Shown in pieces: positions 91 to 12,249 of a stretch of 22,206 nucleotides of DNA. Origin of the DNA: Candidatus Hermodarchaeota archaeon (lineage in GTDB: Archaea; Asgardarchaeota; Lokiarchaeia; Sigyniarchaeales; SOKP01); NCBI GenBank assembly GCA_048885925.1, contig JBHLLG010000047.1, positions 1-22,206 on the forward strand. The letters run 5' to 3'. The notes beneath the pieces were generated by a model. That model saw nothing but the letters and a program-made list of their open reading frames with translations, was not told the origin of the DNA and searched no databases. Numbering within the stretch: the first letter of the stretch is position 1; each line of letters starts with the position of its first letter. A program made the translations under genes and the position numbers.

Positions 91-2277
91 TTAGAGAGCA
101 AGGTCCTTTATTCTAGAATTAATTTTTTTTCGTAGCTTAATTGTTAAACGCATTAAATTTTTAGCTTGGCTTATGAAATCTGATACATTAATTTTCATTT
201 TTCCCAATACTTTTAATTTTATTTTAAGTCTATCTTGAAGTTCAGTAATCATATCTCCAATCTGACCATAATAATTAAAGTAAAAATTATATTGAAGTTT
301 TCTTATCTCATTTCGTCTTTGCATCGGTTCTAAATTTTGAATCATTAATTTTTCCTGAGGATACACTTCAAGCATTTCTCTTGTTTTTAAATTAAAAGAT
401 TTTACTATCTTTTTTAGTTCAGCCCTCTCAAATTCAAAATTTTTTGCTTCTCTCTCTCTTTTCTCTTCATTCACATTATCATCGATAATCTGAATATAAT
501 CTAATATATCTCCCTTTTTATCTTCTCTAACTTTGTCTAATTTCTCTATTAATGCATCTTTAATTTTCTCTAAAAATTTGGGATTGGAGTCTAGGGGAAC
601 ACTAAAAGATAAGTGCCACGACTCTCTTGAACTGGAAGTATATAAGTTCTCTTTTCCTTCTGGAAGCTCTAGTATTTTTAATACAATATCTCCAAGGATA
701 GTAGGAAACCTCTTAGCACATTTTTGGAGAAAATTGGATAACATTTTAGGCTGAGATGAGACAATCTTAATTAGGGTTGTAGTATCTATTATTGTTTTGA
801 ATTCAAAGGAGGTGAATTGGCTTATATATCCTAGAATTATGAGATATTTAACGACAGAGGGGTACCCACTTTTAAGCCTTTGGGCAATTTCTTCTTTAAA
901 TACTCTTTTTGCCATTGGATCTCCAGCTTCAGTCAATTTTTTTAATACTGGAAAAGAAATATTACTCATTAATAACCGCGTGTCATAATTATGTTCGACC
1001 CATACTTGGAGATTTGAACAATGACCCCAAAATTCTTGTTCAGGAGTTATCGTTATATTTTGGAACTGAGAAGCTATTCCCACTTGACCTTCTACAATTC
1101 TATTTTCCCATAGAGACTGCTTATAGACCTTTACCGCTTCATCGATAGATTCTATTTCTTCATATAAATCTCTCTCTTGAGGTGGAATTTGCAGAAAAAG
1201 TCGTATACATTGGAGAAATCTCTTTCCATTTATGTAGATGTAAGTCCTTTTATCTTCCAACTTAAGCGTTATATATTCATTAATCTTGTAAACTTTTTTA
1301 ACTGTAGGTGCTTTTTCCTTCGGTAACTTTTTTTCAGTAAAAACTACTTTCGGTGGTTTTTTTTCAGTAAAAACTACTTTCGGTGGTTTTTTTTCAGTAA
1401 TCTTAGGTGCTCTTTCCTTAGGTATTATTTCATTATATATTCTCAAAAATTTTGAAATTAGTTGAGGATTATTCTGTTGAAGTAAATAATTAATATAACC
1501 AGCTAGTCCTTCACTATCTTTATTCCAGTTTAAATCATTTTTAAACTGGAATATTTCATCTCTTAATTTGGAATCTACACGCTTGATATCTCTACTACTG
1601 TGCTTAATTTCACCTTTTTCCTTAGGTACCGGATATAATTTAGGCTCAGGAGCTATTAATTCAAAGTCTATATGAGGTTTGACTTTCTTAAATTTTATAA
1701 TATTTCCAAAGATATCAGTGGATACTCCCTTAGTAAAGAGATAGCGCATTACATATGGACCTAAAACAGGAAGTCCATCATCCTTAGAGATCTTCAATAC
1801 ATCAGCACCAAATATTTCAGGAAGATATTGTCTCTCAATCGTTAATTCATTAATAGAATTATTTTTCATTATAGATTTGATTTTTTTTCCTACTGAGCTA
1901 AGTTTCTTGGTAATTACTCGAAGAATGATTATATATTCATCATCTTTTGTAGCCACGATACTTTCTACACCACTATAAGACATAGCTACTAATCGTTCGG
2001 CTTCCATCTGTAGTATAGTATATTTAACTCCTGATATCGTGATGAATTGAGCATTTTGACCAAACCAACTTGATAACAAACTGTCAACATCTCCACTAAT
2101 GTCCCAATTATCTGTTGTATAAATAATTCGTCTATCTTTAATTATAGCTCCAGCAATAATTTCGAAATTCTTTTTTAAAGAATCTCTGATATTCAGGTAT
2201 TTTAATGGAATTCCACAGTTTAAACAAAATTGTTGATTTGGATCTTGTAGCTCTTTACCGCAATTTCCGCAATACAT
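91..2277 (-). CDS. Multidomain protein: N-terminal zinc ribbon, Asgard profilin-like domain, Lys/Pro repeat linker, Lokiarchaeia-expanded domain (usually LRR-associated), helical C-terminus
   Basis: CGNC...CLNC ribbon; IIYTTDNWDISGDV...SGVKYTILQMEAERLVA resembles Asgard profilins; INEYITLKLE...SIDEA...EFWGHCSNLQVW...YDTRLL..NISFPVLKKL..AGDP.AKRVFKEEI is a motif set I recognise from a large lokiarchaeal paralogue family. Confidence 0.75.
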   Translation of the reverse strand: MYCGNCGKELQDPNQQFCLNCGIPLKYLNIRDSLKKNFEIIAGAIIKDRRIIYTTDNWDISGDVDSLLSSWFGQNAQFITISGVKYTILQMEAERLVAMSYSGVESIVATKDDEYIIILRVITKKLSSVGKKIKSIMKNNSINELTIERQYLPEIFGADVLKISKDDGLPVLGPYVMRYLFTKGVSTDIFGNIIKFKKVKPHIDFELIAPEPKLYPVPKEKGEIKHSSRDIKRVDSKLRDEIFQFKNDLNWNKDSEGLAGYINYLLQQNNPQLISKFLRIYNEIIPKERAPKITEKKPPKVVFTEKKPPKVVFTEKKLPKEKAPTVKKVYKINEYITLKLEDKRTYIYINGKRFLQCIRLFLQIPPQERDLYEEIESIDEAVKVYKQSLWENRIVEGQVGIASQFQNITITPEQEFWGHCSNLQVWVEHNYDTRLLMSNISFPVLKKLTEAGDPMAKRVFKEEIAQRLKSGYPSVVKYLIILGYISQFTSFEFKTIIDTTTLIKIVSSQPKMLSNFLQKCAKRFPTILGDIVLKILELPEGKENLYTSSSRESWHLSFSVPLDSNPKFLEKIKDALIEKLDKVREDKKGDILDYIQIIDDNVNEEKREREAKNFEFERAELKKIVKSFNLKTREMLEVYPQEKLMIQNLEPMQRRNEIRKLQYNFYFNYYGQIGDMITELQDRLKIKLKVLGKMKINVSDFISQAKNLMRLTIKLRKKINSRIKDLAL
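1305..1423. repeat. Coding tandem repeat: about 2.7 copies of a 30-bp unit (TEKKPPKVVF), flanked by two near-identical 20-bp PKE(K/R)AP-coding segments
   Basis: cggtggttttttttcagtaaaaactacttt repeated over 1321-1400; taggtgctttttccttcggt (1305-1324) vs taggtgctctttccttaggt (1404-1423). Confidence 0.95.
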
Positions 2278-2877: not shown

Positions 2878-3276
2878 TCAAACACGTCTCCCCCTGTGAC
2901 CACCCTTCCTTCTACAGTGGTCATGCGATTTAGGGGTTACTTCTTCAATCCTTCCAACTTGTAATCCTGCTCGTGCGAGAGCACGAATACATGCCTGTGC
3001 TCCTGGACCAGGAGTTTGTGATTTATTTCCACCGGGTGCTCTTACTTTTATATGAATCCCTCTGATTCCCTTATCCCGAAGATCATTAGCCACTCTAAAC
3101 CCACATTGCATTGCTGCATAGGGATTGCTCTCATCTCGGTCTGCTTTTACGACCATACCACCAGAACATTTTGAGAATGTTTCAGCTCCACTTATATCTG
3201 TTGCAGTTACTAATGTGTTATTATAACTTGAAAAAATATGTACAATTGCCCATTTAATTTCATCTTTTTTACTCAT
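2878..3276 (-). CDS. rps11: 30S ribosomal protein S11 (uS11)
   Basis: [46 protein letters not shown] archaeal uS11 motifs; SD GAGGT upstream. Confidence 0.98.
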
Positions 3277-3289
3277 TATTTAACCTCTT

Positions 3290-3793
3290 TTAACTTTTTT
3301 CAGTCGTTGCTGTTAATGGACTACTTGGAACGAAGTCAATAAGATCTTCTTCCGCTTTTTTAACTAAATAGGAAGGAGCATTAATTTTTTTTCCAGCAAC
3401 TTGAATATGTCCATGGGTAATATATTGTCTGGCTTGATAAACCGTGCTTGCGAGACCTTTATCATAAACAAGGGTTTGTAGTCGTCTTTTTAAAACATCT
3501 TCGACATTGAGGAGAAGCACATCTTCAAACTCTGCTTCTGGTCCAATAATACCTAGGCGATTTAATTTTTTAATCAATTCCTTTTGGACTTCTATAGCTT
3601 GTTCTCTAGGTAATGTTCTAGATTGTCTAGCAATATTACGCCAATTACCTAACATTGTACGTGATTTCCAAAATTCTCGCTTGTTTCTAAGACCATATTT
3701 ACCAAGAAATTCGAGTTCTTCCATTATTCGACCTTTCTGAAATGGATGTTTCGGTTTTTTAAATTTCTTTTTTAAACGTCTTGGATCTCCCAT
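3290..3793 (-). CDS. rps4: 30S ribosomal protein S4 (uS4)
   Basis: MGDPRR..KK, YGLRNKRE, RRLQTLV..KGLA....QARQYITHGHI; SD GGTGA. Confidence 0.98.
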   Translation of the reverse strand: MGDPRRLKKKFKKPKHPFQKGRIMEELEFLGKYGLRNKREFWKSRTMLGNWRNIARQSRTLPREQAIEVQKELIKKLNRLGIIGPEAEFEDVLLLNVEDVLKRRLQTLVYDKGLASTVYQARQYITHGHIQVAGKKINAPSYLVKKAEEDLIDFVPSSPLTATTEKS

Positions 3794-3807
3794 TTACTCA
3801 CCTTCAT

Positions 3808-4302
3808 TTATTTAGCTTTTGGTTGACCCTTTCTCTTTCGTACTACTCCAATTACTAGACCATGTCGACCAGTACTTTTAGTTCTCTGTCCACGTACTTT
3901 TAATCCCAGGTGATGCCTAACTCCTTTGTAGTTTTTAATTTTTTTCATTCTATCAACGTCCCTTTTAACGGTAATTTCTAACATATTTCCAAGAATATGA
4001 ATATCATTACCTGTACGTAAATCTTTTGGGCGGTTTACCATCCATTTAGGGATGCCATTTTCAACAGGATTTATAATTATTTCTTCCAGTCTGTTCAATT
4101 CTTTTTCAGAAACAGCACCTATTCTTGTGTCTGGGTCGATTTCCGCTACTTTAATGACTGCTTGGGCAAATCTTTTACCAATGCCCCTAATTTGAGTTAA
4201 ACCAAACTCAACTTTGGCATTACCATCTATTTGTGCTCGAAATTTGCGAAAAAACACCTTTTCACGAAAACTTTTTGGTCGAACGGCGGATATTGAACTC
4301 AT
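3808..4302 (-). CDS. rps13: 30S ribosomal protein S13 (uS13)
   Basis: LTQIRGIGKRFA, IPKWMVNRPKD, YKGVRHHLGLKVRGQRTKSTGR. Confidence 0.98.
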   Translation of the reverse strand: MSSISAVRPKSFREKVFFRKFRAQIDGNAKVEFGLTQIRGIGKRFAQAVIKVAEIDPDTRIGAVSEKELNRLEEIIINPVENGIPKWMVNRPKDLRTGNDIHILGNMLEITVKRDVDRMKKIKNYKGVRHHLGLKVRGQRTKSTGRHGLVIGVVRKRKGQPKAK

Positions 4303-4433: not shown

Positions 4434-5927
4434 CTAGTAGTTAGGAACCCTCTTCTTTTCTTCTAATTTCAAATTAATATGCTTCATACTTTTAGTTTTT
4501 TTAGAACCAGCAATTTTTTGCAACATTGGTAACCCTGGTTTCACTTCTTCTATAGGTTTAGATTCAATTAAGTTGTTTTTTATCAATTCGTTATAAAGAT
4601 TTTTCCCTCTTTCAGTTCTTATAAGGACTGTGTTCCATCCTGAAGGAGAACCTATGGAACCAATTGATAAATCTGCAGATTCTGATGTTAAATCATAGCA
4701 AATTTCACAATCTTCTCGAGCTAAATGTGAGATTTCCTTAATTGGGACGTTTAATTCTTCACCTTTGTGAGTGTATACAAAAAATTTGCCTTTATTAATA
4801 TCCATTTTTTTAACATTTTTGAGATCTACATTTACTTTATTGCATATTTTTAAAAGAGATTCATAGGAGAAAGATTCCATACAGAATATACCAATTCTGT
4901 ACTCTATATTTTGTAGTGAGGGAATACCAATATCATATATTTTGGATTTTAAAAGAGCTTGCATCTGACATGGTACTCCTACAACTGCGATTTTTTTGTC
5001 TTTCAAGTCATTTTGATTAAGTACTTGAAGATTGGGATTATTAACATATTTTGTACCAGCTGCAGTTATTATATCTTCCTTATTTTCGATCAATAAAGCT
5101 TCAGGACGCCATAATGTATTACTCATTTTAGCTCCAACAGCAAAATTGATTTTCTTATTATCTAAAAGGTATAAAATACATGTACTTGAAATTCCACCAT
5201 CTTGGCATACATCTGCAATTTCTTTTATTTTAGTACGTGCTGAGTATACTTCACGATAATAACCAACATTAGAATAATCTTTAATTTCAGAGACTGCTTC
5301 CTGTACCATATTTAAAATTTTAACTGGTAAATATGTCCTTGGACATAAAAAATAGCATAATCCACATTTGATGCATTTATTCTCATCAATTTTTCCAAAT
5401 CCATTATAGATATGAAGACAGTTGACAGGACAGATTCCTGAGCATAATCCGCAGCCCGAACAGTTATTTGAATCGAAAATAACTTTTACAGGTTCATAAA
5501 TAGTTTTTAATTCTGAAATTCTATTATCATTAGCTTTTATTGACATATCTTTGAATAGTAATTTATCAGGATTAGATTCGTCGCCTTCAATTTTATCATA
5601 TGATTCCTCAACAGAAACTAGTCTTTCATTTCTTAATAGTTCTAATAAGCTTAGAGTCTTATAGATATCAATAGAATTTTGCTCCGAAAATTGTTTAATA
5701 ACTTCAAATTGATTATTAGAATTGTTCTGTAAAAAATTGAAAAGGGAATATTTTAGTAATTCATTATCAAACATTTTAAAAAGAATATTTTCATATTGAG
5801 CTTCATTATAGATTCCAGCTTCTAATATATCTTGTTTTGCATCAATTAAAGCTCGAATCCTATATGAATCTAAGGCAAAAGCCACATTTTTTAAATATTC
5901 CCATGAAAATTCTTCTTCAGAACTCAT
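4434..5927 (-). CDS. Coenzyme F420 hydrogenase/dehydrogenase beta subunit (FrhB/FdhB family) with a 2x[4Fe-4S] ferredoxin domain and an N-terminal extension of about 145 aa
   Basis: CSGCGLCSGICP and CIKCGLCYFLCP; QDGG, AAGTKY, VGVPCQ, IGIFCMESF, CEICYDLTSESADLSIGSIGSPSGW FrhB motifs. Confidence 0.9.
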   Translation of the reverse strand: MSSEEEFSWEYLKNVAFALDSYRIRALIDAKQDILEAGIYNEAQYENILFKMFDNELLKYSLFNFLQNNSNNQFEVIKQFSEQNSIDIYKTLSLLELLRNERLVSVEESYDKIEGDESNPDKLLFKDMSIKANDNRISELKTIYEPVKVIFDSNNCSGCGLCSGICPVNCLHIYNGFGKIDENKCIKCGLCYFLCPRTYLPVKILNMVQEAVSEIKDYSNVGYYREVYSARTKIKEIADVCQDGGISSTCILYLLDNKKINFAVGAKMSNTLWRPEALLIENKEDIITAAGTKYVNNPNLQVLNQNDLKDKKIAVVGVPCQMQALLKSKIYDIGIPSLQNIEYRIGIFCMESFSYESLLKICNKVNVDLKNVKKMDINKGKFFVYTHKGEELNVPIKEISHLAREDCEICYDLTSESADLSIGSIGSPSGWNTVLIRTERGKNLYNELIKNNLIESKPIEEVKPGLPMLQKIAGSKKTKSMKHINLKLEEKKRVPNY

Positions 5928-5957
5928 AATACTATTTAATTATTTTTTTCTTACTTT

Positions 5958-6028
5958 TCCGAACACCCATACAGTGGGTTAGTTCCTTTTCAACTATAAT
6001 TTGTTTGAAAAGATCATTCTATTTCGGA
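5958..6028 (-). promoter_or_regulatory. SECIS-like RNA element of the eukaryote/Loki type in the 3' UTR of mvhD
   Basis: Minus strand reads AUGA-U-CUUUUCAA-ACAAAUUAUAG-UUGAAAAG-GA: AUGA/GA core, 8-bp stem, unpaired AAA in the loop. Closing helices UAG/CUA and UCCGAA/UUCGGA, side hairpin ACCCA-CUGUA-UGGGU. Lies directly after a UGA-containing gene. Confidence 0.75.
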
Positions 6029-6447
6029 TTAAATTTTGGAATAGGAGGGAGGGTGTGAATCTTTTTCGTAATATCTGCGACAGAATTGATAAATTTTTCA
6101 ACCTCTGCCGCAGAGCAAAAGTATTGTTGAACTCTATCTTCAGAAATGCCTACATGTTTTAAAAATTTCTTTAATGTTAAAATATGTTTATAAGTATTCA
6201 TATTCCCGTTACCAAATTCACATTCGCCTTCTTTTCATGAAATTATTGCCACGCCATCAGCCCCATTTAAAAATGCTTCCATGATTAAATGAATACCAAT
6301 TCGCCCGGTACATCTTACACGAATCAAATGAAAATCAGTAGAATAAGACCTTCTTGTTACTCCAGTTAAATCAGCTGCAGAATACCCTCATTTATCACAG
6401 CCAAAAGCAATTATCTTTCTAGACTTTTCATCTTTTTTACTTGAAAT
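6019..6447 (-). CDS. mvhD: Hydrogenase iron-sulfur subunit MvhD/VhuD, selenoprotein with 2 Sec (TGA at 6390-6388 and 6237-6235); probable ATT start
   Basis: One frame reads KIIAFGCDK-U-GYSAADLTGVTRRSYSTDFHLIRVRCTGRIG...AFLNGADGVAIIS-U-KEGECEFGNGN into the 60-aa ORF of the track. Both TGA match the Cys ligands of MvhD motifs CxxC and GCxxGxC. Confidence 0.92.
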
Positions 6448-6468
6448 GATTAATTACCTCTAAATTGT

Positions 6469-8472
6469 TTATTGTTCTATCTTTTCAGGAATTTTTTTGT
6501 GAATTTCTAATTCATCACATCCAATTCCCTTGATTTCTTCTGAAAATTGCTTATCTCTATAATATTTTAAATCAATTGCTCTTGCTGGACAAGATGAAAC
6601 GCAGACACCACAGCCCTTACATTTTAAATCATCAACTTTAGCAATTTGATCTTCCTTAACTTTAATTGCTTCATAAAAGCAGAGTTTTTCGCATCTATGA
6701 CATCCCATGCATAGATCTTCATCTACTTCTGCAATGATTAATTCTTGTTTTATTGTATCATGTGATAATAATGTTGATGCTTTGCTTGCAGCAGCTAAAG
6801 CGGAAGATACTGAATAGGGGATGTTTTTAGGACCTGCAGCGCATCCACTTATATAAATTCCTAAATCCTTAGTTTCTTGAGGGCTCAAACAACCGTGGAT
6901 TTCAGTTAGAAATCCTCCCGGACCTTTACTTAATCCCATTACTTCAATAATTTCTTCAGTTCCCTTAGAAGGTACCATCCCTGTGGATAGTACAACCAAA
7001 TCTGCATCTATTCTAATAATCTCACCCGTCAATGAAGAATATGCTCTAACTTTTAACTTATTAGTTTTGGGGTCTTCTATTATTTCACCTACTTTTCCTC
7101 TTATCATTCTGATACCAGTTTCTCTTATTTTTCTGTAATAATCTTCATTTCCTTTATCAGTAGTACGAATATCTATATAAAACATAATAACTTCCATATC
7201 TGGATATTCTTGCTTTAATAACTGTGCATTTTTGAGTGCTACATTACAACAAACGAAAGAACAATAAGAATTTGCATTTACGTCTCTTGAACCCACGCAT
7301 TGAATCATGATCACTGTTTTTGGTGTTGTTCCATTAGATATTCTATAAACATGTCCACCTGTGGGTCCAATTGGGCTTAGCATTCTTTCCAATTCTATCT
7401 GAGTAATTACGTCTGAATAGATACCGTAATTGTATTCATTTGTTTTCCAAATAGGATATTCATCCCATCCTGTAGCTATAATTACGGATCCTACTTTCAC
7501 ATCAATAATTTCTTCTTTTTGTTCAAAATTTATAGCTTCAGCAGGGCAAGTTCTTTCGCAATTTTTGCAATCTATACATACAGTTCTATCCATTACAGCT
7601 AGTTTTGGCACAGCTTGAGGAAAAGGTATATAAATAGCGCCTCTTTCACCAATACCTCTATCAAATTCACTTGGTACTTTTATAGGGCATTTTGTTGTAC
7701 ATAATCCACATCCCGTACATTTTTTTTCATCAACATACCGAGGATTTTTTTTTATTTTAACATTATAATCCCCAGGAATCCCTCTAAATTCAACGACATC
7801 ACTATAAGTATATAATGTTATATTTGGATGCTTTGATGCATTTACCATGATGGGAGCTAGAACTCATATTCCACAATCATCAGTTGGGTAAATTCGATCT
7901 AATTGTGCCATTTTTCCTCCTATTGTTGCTTCTTTTTCTACCAAATAGACATTAATTCCTTGATTTGCTAAATCTAAGGCAGCATTCATTCCTGCGATAC
8001 CTGCTCCAACTACTAATACTGCTTTTTCAACAGGTATTTCTTTTCGAGGTATTGCCTCTAATTCACGTGCTCGATTTATTCCTGCTTTAATTAACCTTTT
8101 TGCTTTTTCTGTTGCATTTTCTCTGTCTTTAGCATGGACAAAAGAGCAATGTTCACGAAGATTTACCATTTGAAAAAAATACGGACTTAAACCTGCCTCA
8201 ATTAGGACAGCTCTATAGGTTGGTTCATGAATTTTAGGCGTACAAGCAGCTACTACTACTCTGTTTAAATTTAATTCTAAAATATCATTCTTGATAATAT
8301 TTTGACCAGGATCACTACAGGTAAAATCGTTTACTCGAGCAATAATTACATTAGGTAAATGTTCAACATAATCTCGAACAGCATCACAATCAATAGAAGC
8401 TCCTATGTTCACTCCTCACCTACATACATAAACTCCGATTCTTGGTTCATCCTTGGTCTGTTTATCAGACAA
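6469..8472 (-). CDS. hdrA: Heterodisulfide reductase subunit A family flavoprotein (667 aa), selenoprotein with 2 Sec (U19, TGA 8418-8416; U203, TGA 7866-7864)
   Basis: TTG start at 8472 behind AGGTGA; RIGVYVCR-U-GVNIG; VVGAGIAG FAD motif; PTDDCGI-U-VLAPIM joins the two track ORFs in one frame; CTGCGLC, CIDCKNC, IQCVGSRD...YCSFVCC, C-terminal CMGCHRC/CKGCGVC. Confidence 0.95.
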
Positions 8473-8681
8473 TTAATTCACCTTTTTGTAAAAGATCACC
8501 ATTGATTTTATGTAAATTTAAAATTTTACCTTAAATCTTAATGGTTTATGAAATTAATGAAATAATTTATTTTTTCTGATTAGACTTTAATAAGTGTTTA
8601 TTGTTGTTTTCTTTTAATTCAATATTAATTAATGTGAGCTTTCTCGTGAATTTTTTATGGAGAAATTAATTATAAAAAATT

Positions 8682-8978: not shown

Positions 8979-10268
8979 TTGATTGATATTGAATTATTTC
9001 GCACCAATCTTGAAAAAGTATTAGATTCAGAGAAGAAAAGGTTTAAGGATCCTTCAATTGCAGAAAAAGTTTTGGAATATGACATGAAATGGAGATCAAT
9101 TCTGCAAGAACTACAAGATTTAAGGGAAAAAAGAAACAAAATTTCAATTAAAATTGGTGAATTCAAAAAATCAAATGAGAACAAAAAGGCAGAAGAAGTA
9201 ATAAAGAAATCAAGAAAAATCAAAGAAAAGATTGATGAATTAGAAAAAATACGAGAAGATTACCTTGAACAACGAGAAAAATATCGTTATATGGTAGGAA
9301 ATATTCTCCATGATTCTGTTCCTATTGGTGAAACTGAGGAAGAGAATGAAATTGTTAGGATAATTGGAAATATACCAAAATTTGATTTTAAACCATTATC
9401 ACATTTTGATTTGATTGAAAAAATTGATGGAGTAGATACTAAAAAAGCTTCGGAAGTAGTAGGCTCGAGATTTTTTTATTTAAAAGGAGATCTTGTTTTA
9501 CTTAATTTAGCTCTTTTGAAGTATGCATTAGACAAATTATTAAGTAAAAATTATATCCCCATGTGGACTCCATTCTTTACAAAATATGAAGTAATGAAAG
9601 CAGCAGCAGAATTAGCAGATTTTGAAGATCAATTATACAAAATTCAGGATGAAGATTTATATATGATTGCAACATCTGAACAATCCCTAGCCGCTTATCA
9701 TTATGATGAAATAATAGAACCAGAAAGATTACCAATCAAATACGCAGGAATCTCTTCATGTTTTAGAAGAGAAGCAGGTTCTCATGGAAAGGATACTTTA
9801 GGAATATTTAGAGTACATCGATTTGAAAAAGTAGAACAATTTATATTTTGTAAACCGGAAGATTCATGGATGCATCATGAGGAATTAATAAAAAATGCTG
9901 AAGAAATTTATAAGGAATTAAAATTACCCTACAGAATTGTGAATATCGCTTCTGGAGCGTTAAATGATAACGCGGCAAAAAAATATGATTTAGAAGTATG
10001 GTTTCCTGCGTCAGAAACATACCGTGAATTAGTATCCTGCAGTAATTGTTTAGATTATCAAGCAAGGAAGTTAAAAATTCGTATGGGAAAAGTTGGTTCC
10101 CAAGAAGCAAAAGAAACATTGCATACCTTAAATTCAACTGCAATAGCAACTGAACGTACAATATGTTGTATTATTGAAAATTATCAAAACAAGGATCATT
10201 CAATCACGATTCCAGAGGTTCTACGCAAATATATGAATGGTAGAAAGATTATTAAGGCAATAAAATAA
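8979..10268 (+). CDS. serS: Serine--tRNA ligase
   Basis: N-terminal coiled-coil arm, ATSEQ, SSCFRREAGSHGKDTLGIFRVHRFEKVEQF (motif 2), KKYDLEVWFP, ELVSCSNC.DYQAR, TLNSTAIATER (motif 3). Confidence 0.97.
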   Translation: MIDIELFRTNLEKVLDSEKKRFKDPSIAEKVLEYDMKWRSILQELQDLREKRNKISIKIGEFKKSNENKKAEEVIKKSRKIKEKIDELEKIREDYLEQREKYRYMVGNILHDSVPIGETEEENEIVRIIGNIPKFDFKPLSHFDLIEKIDGVDTKKASEVVGSRFFYLKGDLVLLNLALLKYALDKLLSKNYIPMWTPFFTKYEVMKAAAELADFEDQLYKIQDEDLYMIATSEQSLAAYHYDEIIEPERLPIKYAGISSCFRREAGSHGKDTLGIFRVHRFEKVEQFIFCKPEDSWMHHEELIKNAEEIYKELKLPYRIVNIASGALNDNAAKKYDLEVWFPASETYRELVSCSNCLDYQARKLKIRMGKVGSQEAKETLHTLNSTAIATERTICCIIENYQNKDHSITIPEVLRKYMNGRKIIKAIK

Positions 10269-10280
10269 AATTTAAGTAAA

Positions 10281-11513
10281 ATGATTGAAAAAGAATTAGA
10301 ACAGTTTGAAAATTATTATAAAGAGCAACTTAATTCTAAATATTCTAAGATCAAGAAAATTGTTAATAAATTACTCTTAGAGATTAGAGAGAATTTGATT
10401 GAAATCAAAGTATGTTTAGATCACTTTTTAGAAACTGGAAAGGAAAAAATTGATCAAAAAGCACAAAGATCGTTAAACTTTTTTTCTGATAGAATAAGAA
10501 AAGAAATTGATGAAATCATAATTCCTGAAAAGGAAATAAATTACGAGGTAATTATGGATTTACTAAATTCTATTAAAAAATTATTTAATACAATTAATGA
10601 AATCGCTAGAAAATCGCTACCAAAGTTTCATAAAGAAGTTCAGGCAGAAATTAAAGAATTAAACTATATAACTCGAAAATTAGGGAAAAAGCAAACAACA
10701 TTAGATCAATTCATGAGAAAAAAGTATACTGAAGTGAAAGATGCTGAGGAGAATCTTAAAAAACTACCAAAACTCTTCCACCTAAAAGAAAATATAGAAC
10801 ATGCTAAAACGAATTTGGATCAATTTGAAAAAGAATTACAAGATCGTAAAAAAACCCAAGAAGAATTAAATTCAGAGTTAATAGAACTAGAAAAAAATGA
10901 ATTATTTAAGGAATTAGATGATAAAAAAGATGATTTGTTTCAATTACGATTAACAATTAATGATGAAATAGGATTTAAAAAAGCCTTAAAGAAATTAAAG
11001 TTTGAATTAGAAAAAGAAACAATTCATATTTCAAATGTTGATTTAAATTATATGAAAGACTTTCTTAAAAGTCCAATTAAAGCCTTAATTAATGAACGTA
11101 AAGATTTACCAAAATTTACAGCTCTTATGGTTCAATTACGTCATGCTTTGGAGGAAAATAAATTAAATCTCAAAACTGATACTAAAGAAAAAACAATAGA
11201 ACAGATAAATACAATTTTTGATACTAAGCAATTACATGAGAAAATTGAAAAATACATTCAAATTAAAGAAGAAGTTAAAGAAATAGATAAGAAAATTCAA
11301 GATGCAGGTTTAGCACAAAAATTAGAGGATCTTAAAAATCAAATTGCTGCAAATGCTATAAAATTAGAACATGTGGAAAATGATTTTGATAGAAAAAATA
11401 AGGACTATACTCGATATCTTGGAGCTCTTAAAACAGAAAGAGAAGAATTTCAGAACTCGATAGAGCAAGTATTAAATGATAAAGTTAAAATAAATATTAC
11501 TTTTTCTTTCTAA
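10281..11513 (+). CDS. Long coiled-coil hypothetical protein (410 aa)
   Basis: E/K/L-rich heptad character throughout; no Walker motif or TM segment seen; 12 nt after serS. Confidence 0.8.
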   Translation: MIEKELEQFENYYKEQLNSKYSKIKKIVNKLLLEIRENLIEIKVCLDHFLETGKEKIDQKAQRSLNFFSDRIRKEIDEIIIPEKEINYEVIMDLLNSIKKLFNTINEIARKSLPKFHKEVQAEIKELNYITRKLGKKQTTLDQFMRKKYTEVKDAEENLKKLPKLFHLKENIEHAKTNLDQFEKELQDRKKTQEELNSELIELEKNELFKELDDKKDDLFQLRLTINDEIGFKKALKKLKFELEKETIHISNVDLNYMKDFLKSPIKALINERKDLPKFTALMVQLRHALEENKLNLKTDTKEKTIEQINTIFDTKQLHEKIEKYIQIKEEVKEIDKKIQDAGLAQKLEDLKNQIAANAIKLEHVENDFDRKNKDYTRYLGALKTEREEFQNSIEQVLNDKVKINITFSF

Positions 11514-11517
11514 ATTA

Positions 11518-12249
11518 TTACTTGCGCTCTGTTATTTCAAAAGATCTGTTGTCATAAACACTTTTCTTTTTTAAAGTTAATTTAAGATTATTTTTTAAAA
11601 ATTTGAATACGTCCTTATGTGTTAATTTAAATGCTTTAAGATAGGTGTAGGCAAGAATCAAATCTTGCTTTATATCTACATCAAAACCAGCTCTAAAAGA
11701 ATCATATATTGCTATTTTATCTATCCCTATCTTTTCAGCATTGTTAAGTAGAGCAATTAAAGAAGGCGTAATCGGATCAGAGAAATAAGATGAGATTATA
11801 TTAGGTGGATTTCTTCCAAGAATAGAAATACCTGCAGAATGAATTGCAGGGCAAATGACAAGTTGATTTATTTCTAAAAGTGTGTTAATCTCATAGAAAT
11901 TTTTTGATGAAATCAATATCAAATCTAAAAAGCTAAATATAGTTTGTTTTGCATTAAATTTTTTAAATCCAATATTATTAAGATCGGCTATTACTTCGTC
12001 AAAAGATTTGGGAGGTGCTGTTATTTCTTCTTTTATTCCTGTTAAATCATAATCTTTTGCTAGATCTAATATTTCAGGAGCATTGCAATACACAATCTTC
12101 TTATCAAAACATTCGACTTCAGATAAAGTACTTCCAAGATCTTTAAACATAGCAATTGTTAATTCTTTAAGTTGTACATTGGAAAAACAATCTCTAAGAC
12201 GAGATTTTGTTCTTGCTAGTGGAGCAATAGGAATCAATAAAACACTCAT
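11518..12249 (-). CDS. cofC: CofC-like 2-phospho-L-lactate/PEP guanylyltransferase (F420 biosynthesis)
   Basis: LLIPI...TKSRL...L..AMFKD N-terminus, LVICPA...G, FDVD...DL C-terminal motif. Confidence 0.75.
   Translation of the reverse strand: MSVLLIPIAPLARTKSRLRDCFSNVQLKELTIAMFKDLGSTLSEVECFDKKIVYCNAPEILDLAKDYDLTGIKEEITAPPKSFDEVIADLNNIGFKKFNAKQTIFSFLDLILISSKNFYEINTLLEINQLVICPAIHSAGISILGRNPPNIISSYFSDPITPSLIALLNNAEKIGIDKIAIYDSFRAGFDVDIKQDLILAYTYLKAFKLTHKDVFKFLKNNLKLTLKKKSVYDNRSFEITERK

Follow-up and report, generated by a model that had tools for sequence, protein, structure and literature searches.

How are four in-frame UGA codons read in two adjacent genes that share a single recognisable signal for selenocysteine (Sec)? 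The question is raised by the hdrA-mvhD pair of a Loki-type (Asgard) archaeon, found in a stretch of 22,206 nucleotides (nt) from contig JBHLLG010000047.1. This whole stretch is referred to here as the window, and all genes of the cluster lie on its minus strand. The frames of hdrA and mvhD were read with TGA as Sec (U). Four Sec UGA codons, together with one selenocysteine insertion sequence (SECIS) behind mvhD, are confirmed. The locus is very probably an ordinary Lokiarchaeia (Promethearchaeota) hdrA-vhuD selenoprotein pair, with its UGAs decoded via one shared SECIS. The shared arrangement has already been published, and the finding is a correct rediscovery rather than a new system.

The first gene, hdrA (8472..6469, minus strand), encodes a heterodisulfide-reductase subunit A-like flavoprotein of 667 amino acids (aa) in one open frame. 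It starts with TTG, preceded by GGTGA, and ends with TAA. Its Pfam domains comprise Fer4 families and Pyr_redox_2 (pyridine-nucleotide-disulphide oxidoreductase), and the alignment to PDB 9sfi_A (E=1.9e-220) covers residues 9-650. The next gene, mvhD/vhuD/frhD of the FlpD family (6447..6019, minus strand), has 142 aa if AUU at 6447-6445 is the start, and its stop is TAG at 6021-6019. It matches the Pfam family FlpD (E=2.4e-38) and PDB 5odc_D (E=2.6e-27). The two genes are separated by a spacer of 21 nt (6468-6448, minus strand), which holds only a Shine-Dalgarno-like GAGGT (6460-6456). Downstream lies a gene for an frhB/fdhB-like iron-sulfur protein (5927..4434, minus strand) of 497 aa, without TGA and with the stop TAG. 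A preliminary description of this DNA, made from the letters alone, had put the hdrA-mvhD gap at about 20 nt and the stops at TAA for hdrA and TAG for mvhD and frhB, in agreement with these values.

The same description had reported four in-frame TGA codons in the pair, and these are present at hdrA codons 19 and 203 and at mvhD codons 20 and 71. Alignment to homologues places every one of them opposite Cys or Sec. Codon 19 of hdrA (VCRUG; 8418-8416, minus strand) lies opposite Cys13 of 9sfi_A, and codon 203 (DDCGIU; 7866-7864, minus strand) opposite an X (Sec) of the same chain, at the canonical HdrA Sec/Cys197 position. As for mvhD, the first UGA (GCDKU; 6390-6388, minus strand) lies opposite Cys16 of 5odc_D and the second (IISUKEGEC; 6237-6235, minus strand) opposite a further Cys of that chain. 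The hdrA product combines the HdrA domain set with Sec at the canonical position, around 197-203, as in HdrA selenoproteins. The mvhD product has the FlpD domain and, as in VhuD/MvhD/FrhD selenoproteins, two Sec about 50 codons apart opposite Cys, the actual distance being 51 codons. The further claim that each UGA stands at an iron-sulfur cysteine holds in so far as all four align to Cys or Sec, the ligand role being documented in papers only for the equivalent of codon 203 (Cys197). According to passages of one such paper, HdrA Cys197 is a ligand of the partner subunit's N-terminal [4Fe-4S] cluster (PMC9012536). In passages of a 2026 cryo-electron microscopy paper, that cluster and flavin adenine dinucleotide are instead linked by a Cys-Sec197 bridge (PMC13518236).

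Conservation of the four codons was followed in 56 related loci, all from Asgard metagenome-assembled genomes, whose MvhD is 59-89% identical to that of the window. Their titles are mostly Promethearchaeota/Promethearchaeia, with a few Thor-, Hod- or Odinarchaeota or “uncultured archaeon”. Codon 19 of hdrA is TGA in 48/48 covering loci (8 of the 56 are not covered) and codon 203 in 51/51 (5 not covered). The first mvhD site is TGA in 55/55 covering loci (1 not covered), and the second in 49/56, with TGT or TGC in the other 7/56. The four TGA codons are kept across species while the flanking codons vary.

The letters themselves were checked in assembled contigs, namely records with zero differences to the window and record 18 of run X3, which has six differences, all listed. 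Record 25 of run X6 and record 22 of run X3, in which a few differences are unaccounted for, were left aside. Zero-difference contigs span each of the four TGA codons (records 2, 5 and 7 of run X1; record 13 of run X2), and X3 record 18 spans both mvhD TGA codons. Run X1 may be the source sample and hence not independent. Contigs from other studies match the window at the mvhD TGA codons and at the ATT start (X2 records 13 and 15; X3 record 18). TGT or TGC in the reads would have spoken against Sec at these sites, and in the assembled contigs of other-study runs the letters at the mvhD codons are the same as in the window.

The SECIS element has a lokiSECIS core at 6017-5983 (minus strand), which begins 1 nt past the TAG of mvhD. 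Its AUGA (6017-6014) is followed by helix II of 9 base pairs (6013-6005 with 5993-5985), in which 9/9 positions pair, including one U.G beside the core. The apical loop has 11 nt, ACAAAUUAUAG (6004-5994), with A at four of its first five bases and AG at its end. Directly 3' of the stem stands AA (5984-5983), which makes this the AUGA_AA core variant. In passages of Mariotti et al. 2016, the lokiSECIS is described by AUGA, a 9-base-pair stem, an 11-nt loop and GA or AA after the stem, with the first five loop bases A-rich and the last base G, usually preceded by A (PMC4989117). AUGA_AA is listed as a variant in hdrA/frhD genes in passages of Huang et al. 2024 (PMC11227280). The element agrees with the lokiSECIS/Asgard eSECIS-like type I in AUGA, stem, loop length, loop bases, AA, position and single copy.

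A strict pattern places the SECIS within -40 to +60 of the TAA or TAG that closes mvhD in 49/55 related loci with downstream sequence. In 3 further loci it lies slightly upstream of that TAA or TAG, because the real mvhD stop there is TGA. A relaxed pattern (7/9 pairs, loops of 10-12 nt) recovers the SECIS in 55/55 loci. Most of the relatives in the strict-pattern rows have AA 3' of the stem, with a minority having GA. No strict-pattern SECIS was found elsewhere, on either strand, in the 55 related loci of ~6.4 kb, which include the whole of hdrA.

Furthermore, a covariance model built from the related-locus elements (R1) was run over the window with filters off, and it scores the element at 98 bits (E=1.3e-23; 5946-6033, minus strand). 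The next match, of 22.7 bits inside frhB, is without AUGA and without 6/9 of the helix II pairs. Within hdrA the model reaches at most 12.4 bits, with E of at least 2, and it gives no second element in the window. The hdrA 5' leader (8460-8640) has no fold beyond shuffles (z=-0.48). R1 and the pattern scans give one element only, behind mvhD, where the preliminary description had placed the only SECIS-like hairpin, and no second SECIS in or upstream of hdrA is found by R1, by the pattern scans or by the leader fold.

The comparison of relatives also bears on the reach of this element. The hdrA-mvhD tandem is present in 54/54 related loci that hold hdrA, and the MvhD alignment starts 4-48 nt past the hdrA stop. 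Their hdrA stops are TAA in 42/54 and TAG in 12/54, with TGA in 0/54. In passages of Mariotti et al., the lack of UGA stops in hdrA is put down to selection, as the SECIS would recode such a stop (PMC4989117). From the AUGA of the element, the four UGAs of the window are 2401, 1849, 373 and 220 nt away. The idea that one element acts across a cistron boundary, up to about 2.4 kb, is supported by comparison, namely by the single SECIS, the 0/54 TGA stops of hdrA and the 21-nt gap. On this comparative evidence, one SECIS would serve both cistrons, hdrA included.

The same genome contains further examples. C5, C23 and C31 hold hdrA-vhuD pairs with one SECIS apiece, behind vhuD, and C2 holds a two-Sec Prx-like gene with a SECIS. 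The closest hdrA paralogue (C11:60150-62200, minus strand; locus L087) has two UGAs and a SECIS directly behind it, without mvhD. With its own SECIS, this paralogue indicates that such an element pairs with hdrA UGAs ~2 kb upstream. A Cys-type mvhD-frhB pair converges on the C11 paralogue from the opposite strand.

We propose the following mechanism. The genes hdrA and mvhD would most likely be read from one mRNA, probably continuing into the frhB-like gene. Sec-tRNA(Sec) and EFSec would then insert selenocysteine at all four UGAs. The signal would be one eukaryote-like, kink-turn-type SECIS (the AUGA_AA variant), 1 nt past the mvhD stop, and it would act over 220 to 2401 nt, across the cistron boundary.

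The genome should also hold the factors for such decoding, and the Sec machinery appears to be largely present. SepSecS is found with 478.4 bits on TIGR03531 (cut-off 224.85), and SelD, itself with one internal TGA and hence Sec-containing, with 176.7 bits on TIGR00476 (cut-off 125). A tRNA-Sec candidate with anticodon UCA and encoded CCA lies at C8:83691-83815 (plus strand; locus L085 92-216), with a CUUCAAA anticodon loop. SepSecS lies 80 nt downstream of it, and the EFSec candidate is ~6 kb away on the opposite strand. The same EFsec-tRNAsec spacing and opposite strands are described for Loki contigs in passages of Mariotti et al. (PMC4989117). For PSTK (TIGR03574, PF08433), only P-loop N-terminal matches were obtained, and the one on C66 reads like what we take to be an adenosine phosphosulfate kinase. 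The machinery asked about in the preliminary description is thereby recovered in part, with SepSecS and SelD above their cut-offs, EFSec and tRNA-Sec below theirs, and PSTK as an N-terminal fragment only.

Several points weigh against the reading as a pair with a shared SECIS. The EFSec candidate has 234.9 bits on the bacterial selB model, below the cut-off of 242.25, and the tRNA-Sec candidate has 34.1 bits, below the Rfam cut-off of 47. The latter has its 9-base-pair acceptor stem and D arm only without two insertions of ~14-20 nt in the 5' half, and it is not called by ARAGORN. The PSTK-like match on C154 breaks off at a run of N after 50 N-terminal residues. In the window, mvhD is without a canonical start codon. 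The joint transcript and the Sec in the proteins are what we infer from the sequences, and none of the listed runs that contain this DNA is an RNA run. As for the searches, a scan of the whole window against Rfam, with E up to 10, gave no SECIS family and three chance microRNA or long non-coding RNA matches; this silence is uninformative, as the true element was missed too. A SECIS of unknown type inside hdrA could escape a model such as R1.

This last point leads to the reading in which hdrA has its own, differently built Sec signal, in the coding region or in the 5' leader, leaving the element behind mvhD to that gene alone. All searches find only elements that resemble the published lokiSECIS, Rfam is blind even to the true one, and bacterial SECIS elements do occur inside coding regions. 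We nevertheless regard this as distinctly unlikely, since neither the window nor the 55 related loci give a second match, the leader is not folded beyond shuffles, and the hdrA paralogue on C11 has a lokiSECIS directly behind it. In addition, passages of Mariotti et al. report an RNAz screen of coding sequences and 200-nt flanks that gave no other conserved structure (PMC4989117). Separate transcripts for hdrA and mvhD are still harder to credit. Here the hdrA UGAs would be served in trans, or read through at a low level without a SECIS in cis. The weak mvhD start (AUU) would fit, as synthesis of one protein need not keep pace with that of the other; against this, a 21-nt spacer is too small for a terminator and a promoter, and the tandem order is kept in every relative that holds hdrA. 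To our knowledge, no trans-acting SECIS has been described.

The remaining explanations concern the TGA codons themselves. They could be true stops, sequencing errors or the marks of a pseudogene, without full-length selenoproteins. In keeping with this, translation table 11 splits the locus and mvhD has no ATG, GTG or TTG start. The probability is nonetheless minute, for the four codons are kept in 48 to 55 other species with variable flanking codons, the frames extend uninterrupted over 667 and 142 aa, solved structures have Cys or Sec opposite these sites, and independent contigs agree. A genome-wide reassignment of UGA to a standard amino acid, which would make a SECIS unneeded, has nothing in its favour and can be virtually dismissed. 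TGA is an ordinary stop here, ending 5/17 long open reading frames (ORFs) of the window, including the Pfam-supported S11, TrmB-like and 2-Hacid_dh genes, and in-frame TGA is confined to known selenoprotein families with a SECIS behind the gene. We retain the reading of a selenoprotein pair with one shared element.

The element is predicted to be larger than its core. According to minimum free energy (MFE) folds, covariation and a flank-shuffle control, it extends over 6028-5958 (minus strand) as a three-way junction. The preliminary description had started at 5958, which is the exact 3' end of this larger fold. Helix I is formed by UCCGAA (6028-6023), which belongs to the final sense codons of mvhD, and UUCGGA (5963-5958). 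The 5' junction strand contains the mvhD stop codon and AUGA, and helix II is followed by a third hairpin, ACCCA-CUGUA-UGGGU (5979-5965), before the 3' arm of helix I. With the stop codon in the junction loop and helix I in sense codons, a terminating ribosome would have to melt the element each time.

Covariation was examined in a set of the hdrA-mvhD type with 61 sequences, consisting of the window, 55 orthologues and 5 paralogues of the same genome. In this set, 91.1% of the cells pair and both sides change in 18/20 pairs, values reached by 0/500 column shuffles. When the 3' partners are slid by one column, pairing falls to 56.5-63.9%. A second set, of an independent, Prx-like family, was fetched from 150 genomes of the order and holds 36 SECIS elements from 29/30 loci. 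Its architecture is the same, while the sequence of helix I is another (AUCCCAA/UUGGGAU); 86.1% of its cells pair, and 0/500 shuffles match either the pairing or the covariation score. These covariation values are from related sequences and for a structure derived from one of them, with the 5' arm of helix I being coding.

The unconstrained MFE fold contains all three helices in 45/61 and 27/36 sequences of the two sets, compared with 171/1220 and 71/720 of the flank-shuffled controls. Among the elements of the same genome, the junction is the MFE fold in 5/6, and helix I differs again in other paralogues. Loci bearing the junction are found on C5, C11, C2 and C31 of this genome and in loci L023-L078 and L093-L121.

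In its modelled secondary structure, the topology appears to fit a k-junction, with a kink-turn-like core and the third helix in the non-bulged strand. We give about an even chance to the view that the Loki-type SECIS is a k-junction-like three-way junction, with its closing helix taken from the last sense codons and, in this locus, with an intercistronic position. The thiamine pyrophosphate riboswitch k-junction (Wang et al. 2014, PMC4005666) is similar in its G.A core and in a non-bulged strand interrupted by a third helix. It differs in the 5' loop, of 7 nt here versus 3-4, and the likeness is in secondary structure only, with unrelated function. The model in the passages of Huang et al. 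has the core, upper stem and loop only, and the lower stem is mentioned without conserved bases (PMC11227280). Neither the closing helix and third hairpin nor a three-way junction is mentioned in main-text passages of Mariotti et al., Huang et al. or a 2026 review, or in full-text searches, and their figures and supplements may show it.

A further SECIS-like three-way junction, of 61.3 bits, is located at C11:37070-37155 (plus strand; locus L089 1262-1586). The 80-codon ORF in front of it has one in-frame TGA (GTGUGC) and a hydrophobic stretch. It may encode a small selenoprotein that belongs to none of the five common Asgard families.

Regarding the position of the element, the ATG of the frhB-like gene is 91 nt past the mvhD stop and 30 nt past helix I. 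The gene matches FrhB_FdhB_C (E=2.1e-43) and FrhB_FdhB_N (E=4.3e-16) in Pfam, and it is present downstream on the same strand in 55/55 relatives, in most of them 88-126 nt past the closing stop. The spacer between SECIS and frhB was considered for a promoter or terminator; it has no T-run of at least 5 here, nor in 53/55 relatives, and its TATA-like strings lie so near the ATG that they do not decide the matter. The Prx-like SECIS elements mostly have T-runs in the 3' flank (seen by eye, uncounted). In the hdrA-mvhD-frhB cluster, the SECIS is probably intercistronic rather than in a 3' untranslated region, because a conserved frhB-like gene follows without a T-run, unlike the Prx-like elements.

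At the other end of mvhD, ATT (6447-6445) stands where 53/54 relatives have ATG, GTG or TTG, with one relative having none of these. It is found 8 nt past GAGGT and 21 nt past the hdrA stop, and zero-difference contigs from two runs span it. Either AUU serves as a rare start here, or mvhD translation re-initiates in coupling with the termination of hdrA.

The published system closest to this one is that of the Lokiarchaeota HdrA-VhuD pairs. One lokiSECIS was inferred for these tandem pairs in passages of Mariotti et al. 2016 (PMC4989117), and passages of Huang et al. 2024 extend the same arrangement to more than 400 Asgard genomes (PMC11227280). The window resembles them in gene order, in the very short spacer, in the span of ~2 kb, and in a multi-Sec HdrA that includes the position around 200. 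It also shares with them a VhuD with two Sec ~50 codons apart, a single element directly past the VhuD stop and an hdrA that is never UGA-ended. It differs in the core, AUGA_AA versus AUGA_GA, and in the AUU start of mvhD.

A more distant likeness is seen with VhuD and HdrA of Methanococcales/Methanopyrus, which share the protein families, the Sec positions (HdrA ~197 and two in VhuD) and the hdrA-vhuD neighbourhood. According to passages of Mariotti et al., their VhuD SECIS is similar in its AUGA...[G/A]AC motif around the element, and differs in its reach, as one element is confined to the two UGAs of VhuD, which are 50 codons apart (PMC4989117). Their SECIS is also unlike the present one in having a GAA_A bulge and a G+C-rich upper stem. 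Finally, the eukaryotic type I SECIS, with its kink-turn core AUGA/GA and A-rich apical loop, is comparable in its AUGA, in the register of helix II and in the unpaired A's that open the apical loop, and it too acts from beyond the stop codon on a remote UGA. Unlike it, the element here has a shorter stem, lies on a putatively polycistronic mRNA and has, on the 3' strand, a third hairpin that separates helix II from helix I. SBP2 has not been reported from Asgard archaea.

A shared SECIS bears on Sec decoding without SBP2 and across cistrons, as well as on the archaeal origin of the eukaryotic SECIS. This significance was already argued in 2016, and the window is one more clean example. Potential additions are the three-way-junction model, with its concrete helices, and the apparent place of the element between cistrons.

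The locus also matters for gene calling. Read with table 11, it is split into ORFs of 459, 182 and 60 aa, which bears out the expectation that standard callers fragment it. In such genomes, callers using table 11 cut hdrA in three and truncate mvhD. A read-through hdrA-mvhD fusion, the two genes being in the same frame, was also considered, and it is ruled out by three in-frame stops between the genes, two of them inside the spacer.

Lastly, in terms of the neighbourhood, the frhB-like protein has an N-terminal extension and two 4Fe-4S motifs. Downstream of frhB, on the same strand, are the ribosomal protein genes S13, S4 and S11 (2878-4302, minus strand). S11 ends in TGA ~2.7 kb downstream of the SECIS, and if the transcript reached S11 that UGA must remain a stop. 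No tRNA was found in the window by ARAGORN. Pfam gives no match at E up to 1e-5 for two long ORFs, at 91-2277 (minus strand; 728 aa) and 10281-11513 (plus strand; 410 aa). A CofC-like gene of F420 biosynthesis is nearby (11518-12249, minus strand). The gene for seryl-tRNA synthetase (8979-10268, plus strand), whose product charges tRNA-Sec with serine, is divergent and adjoins the hdrA promoter region.

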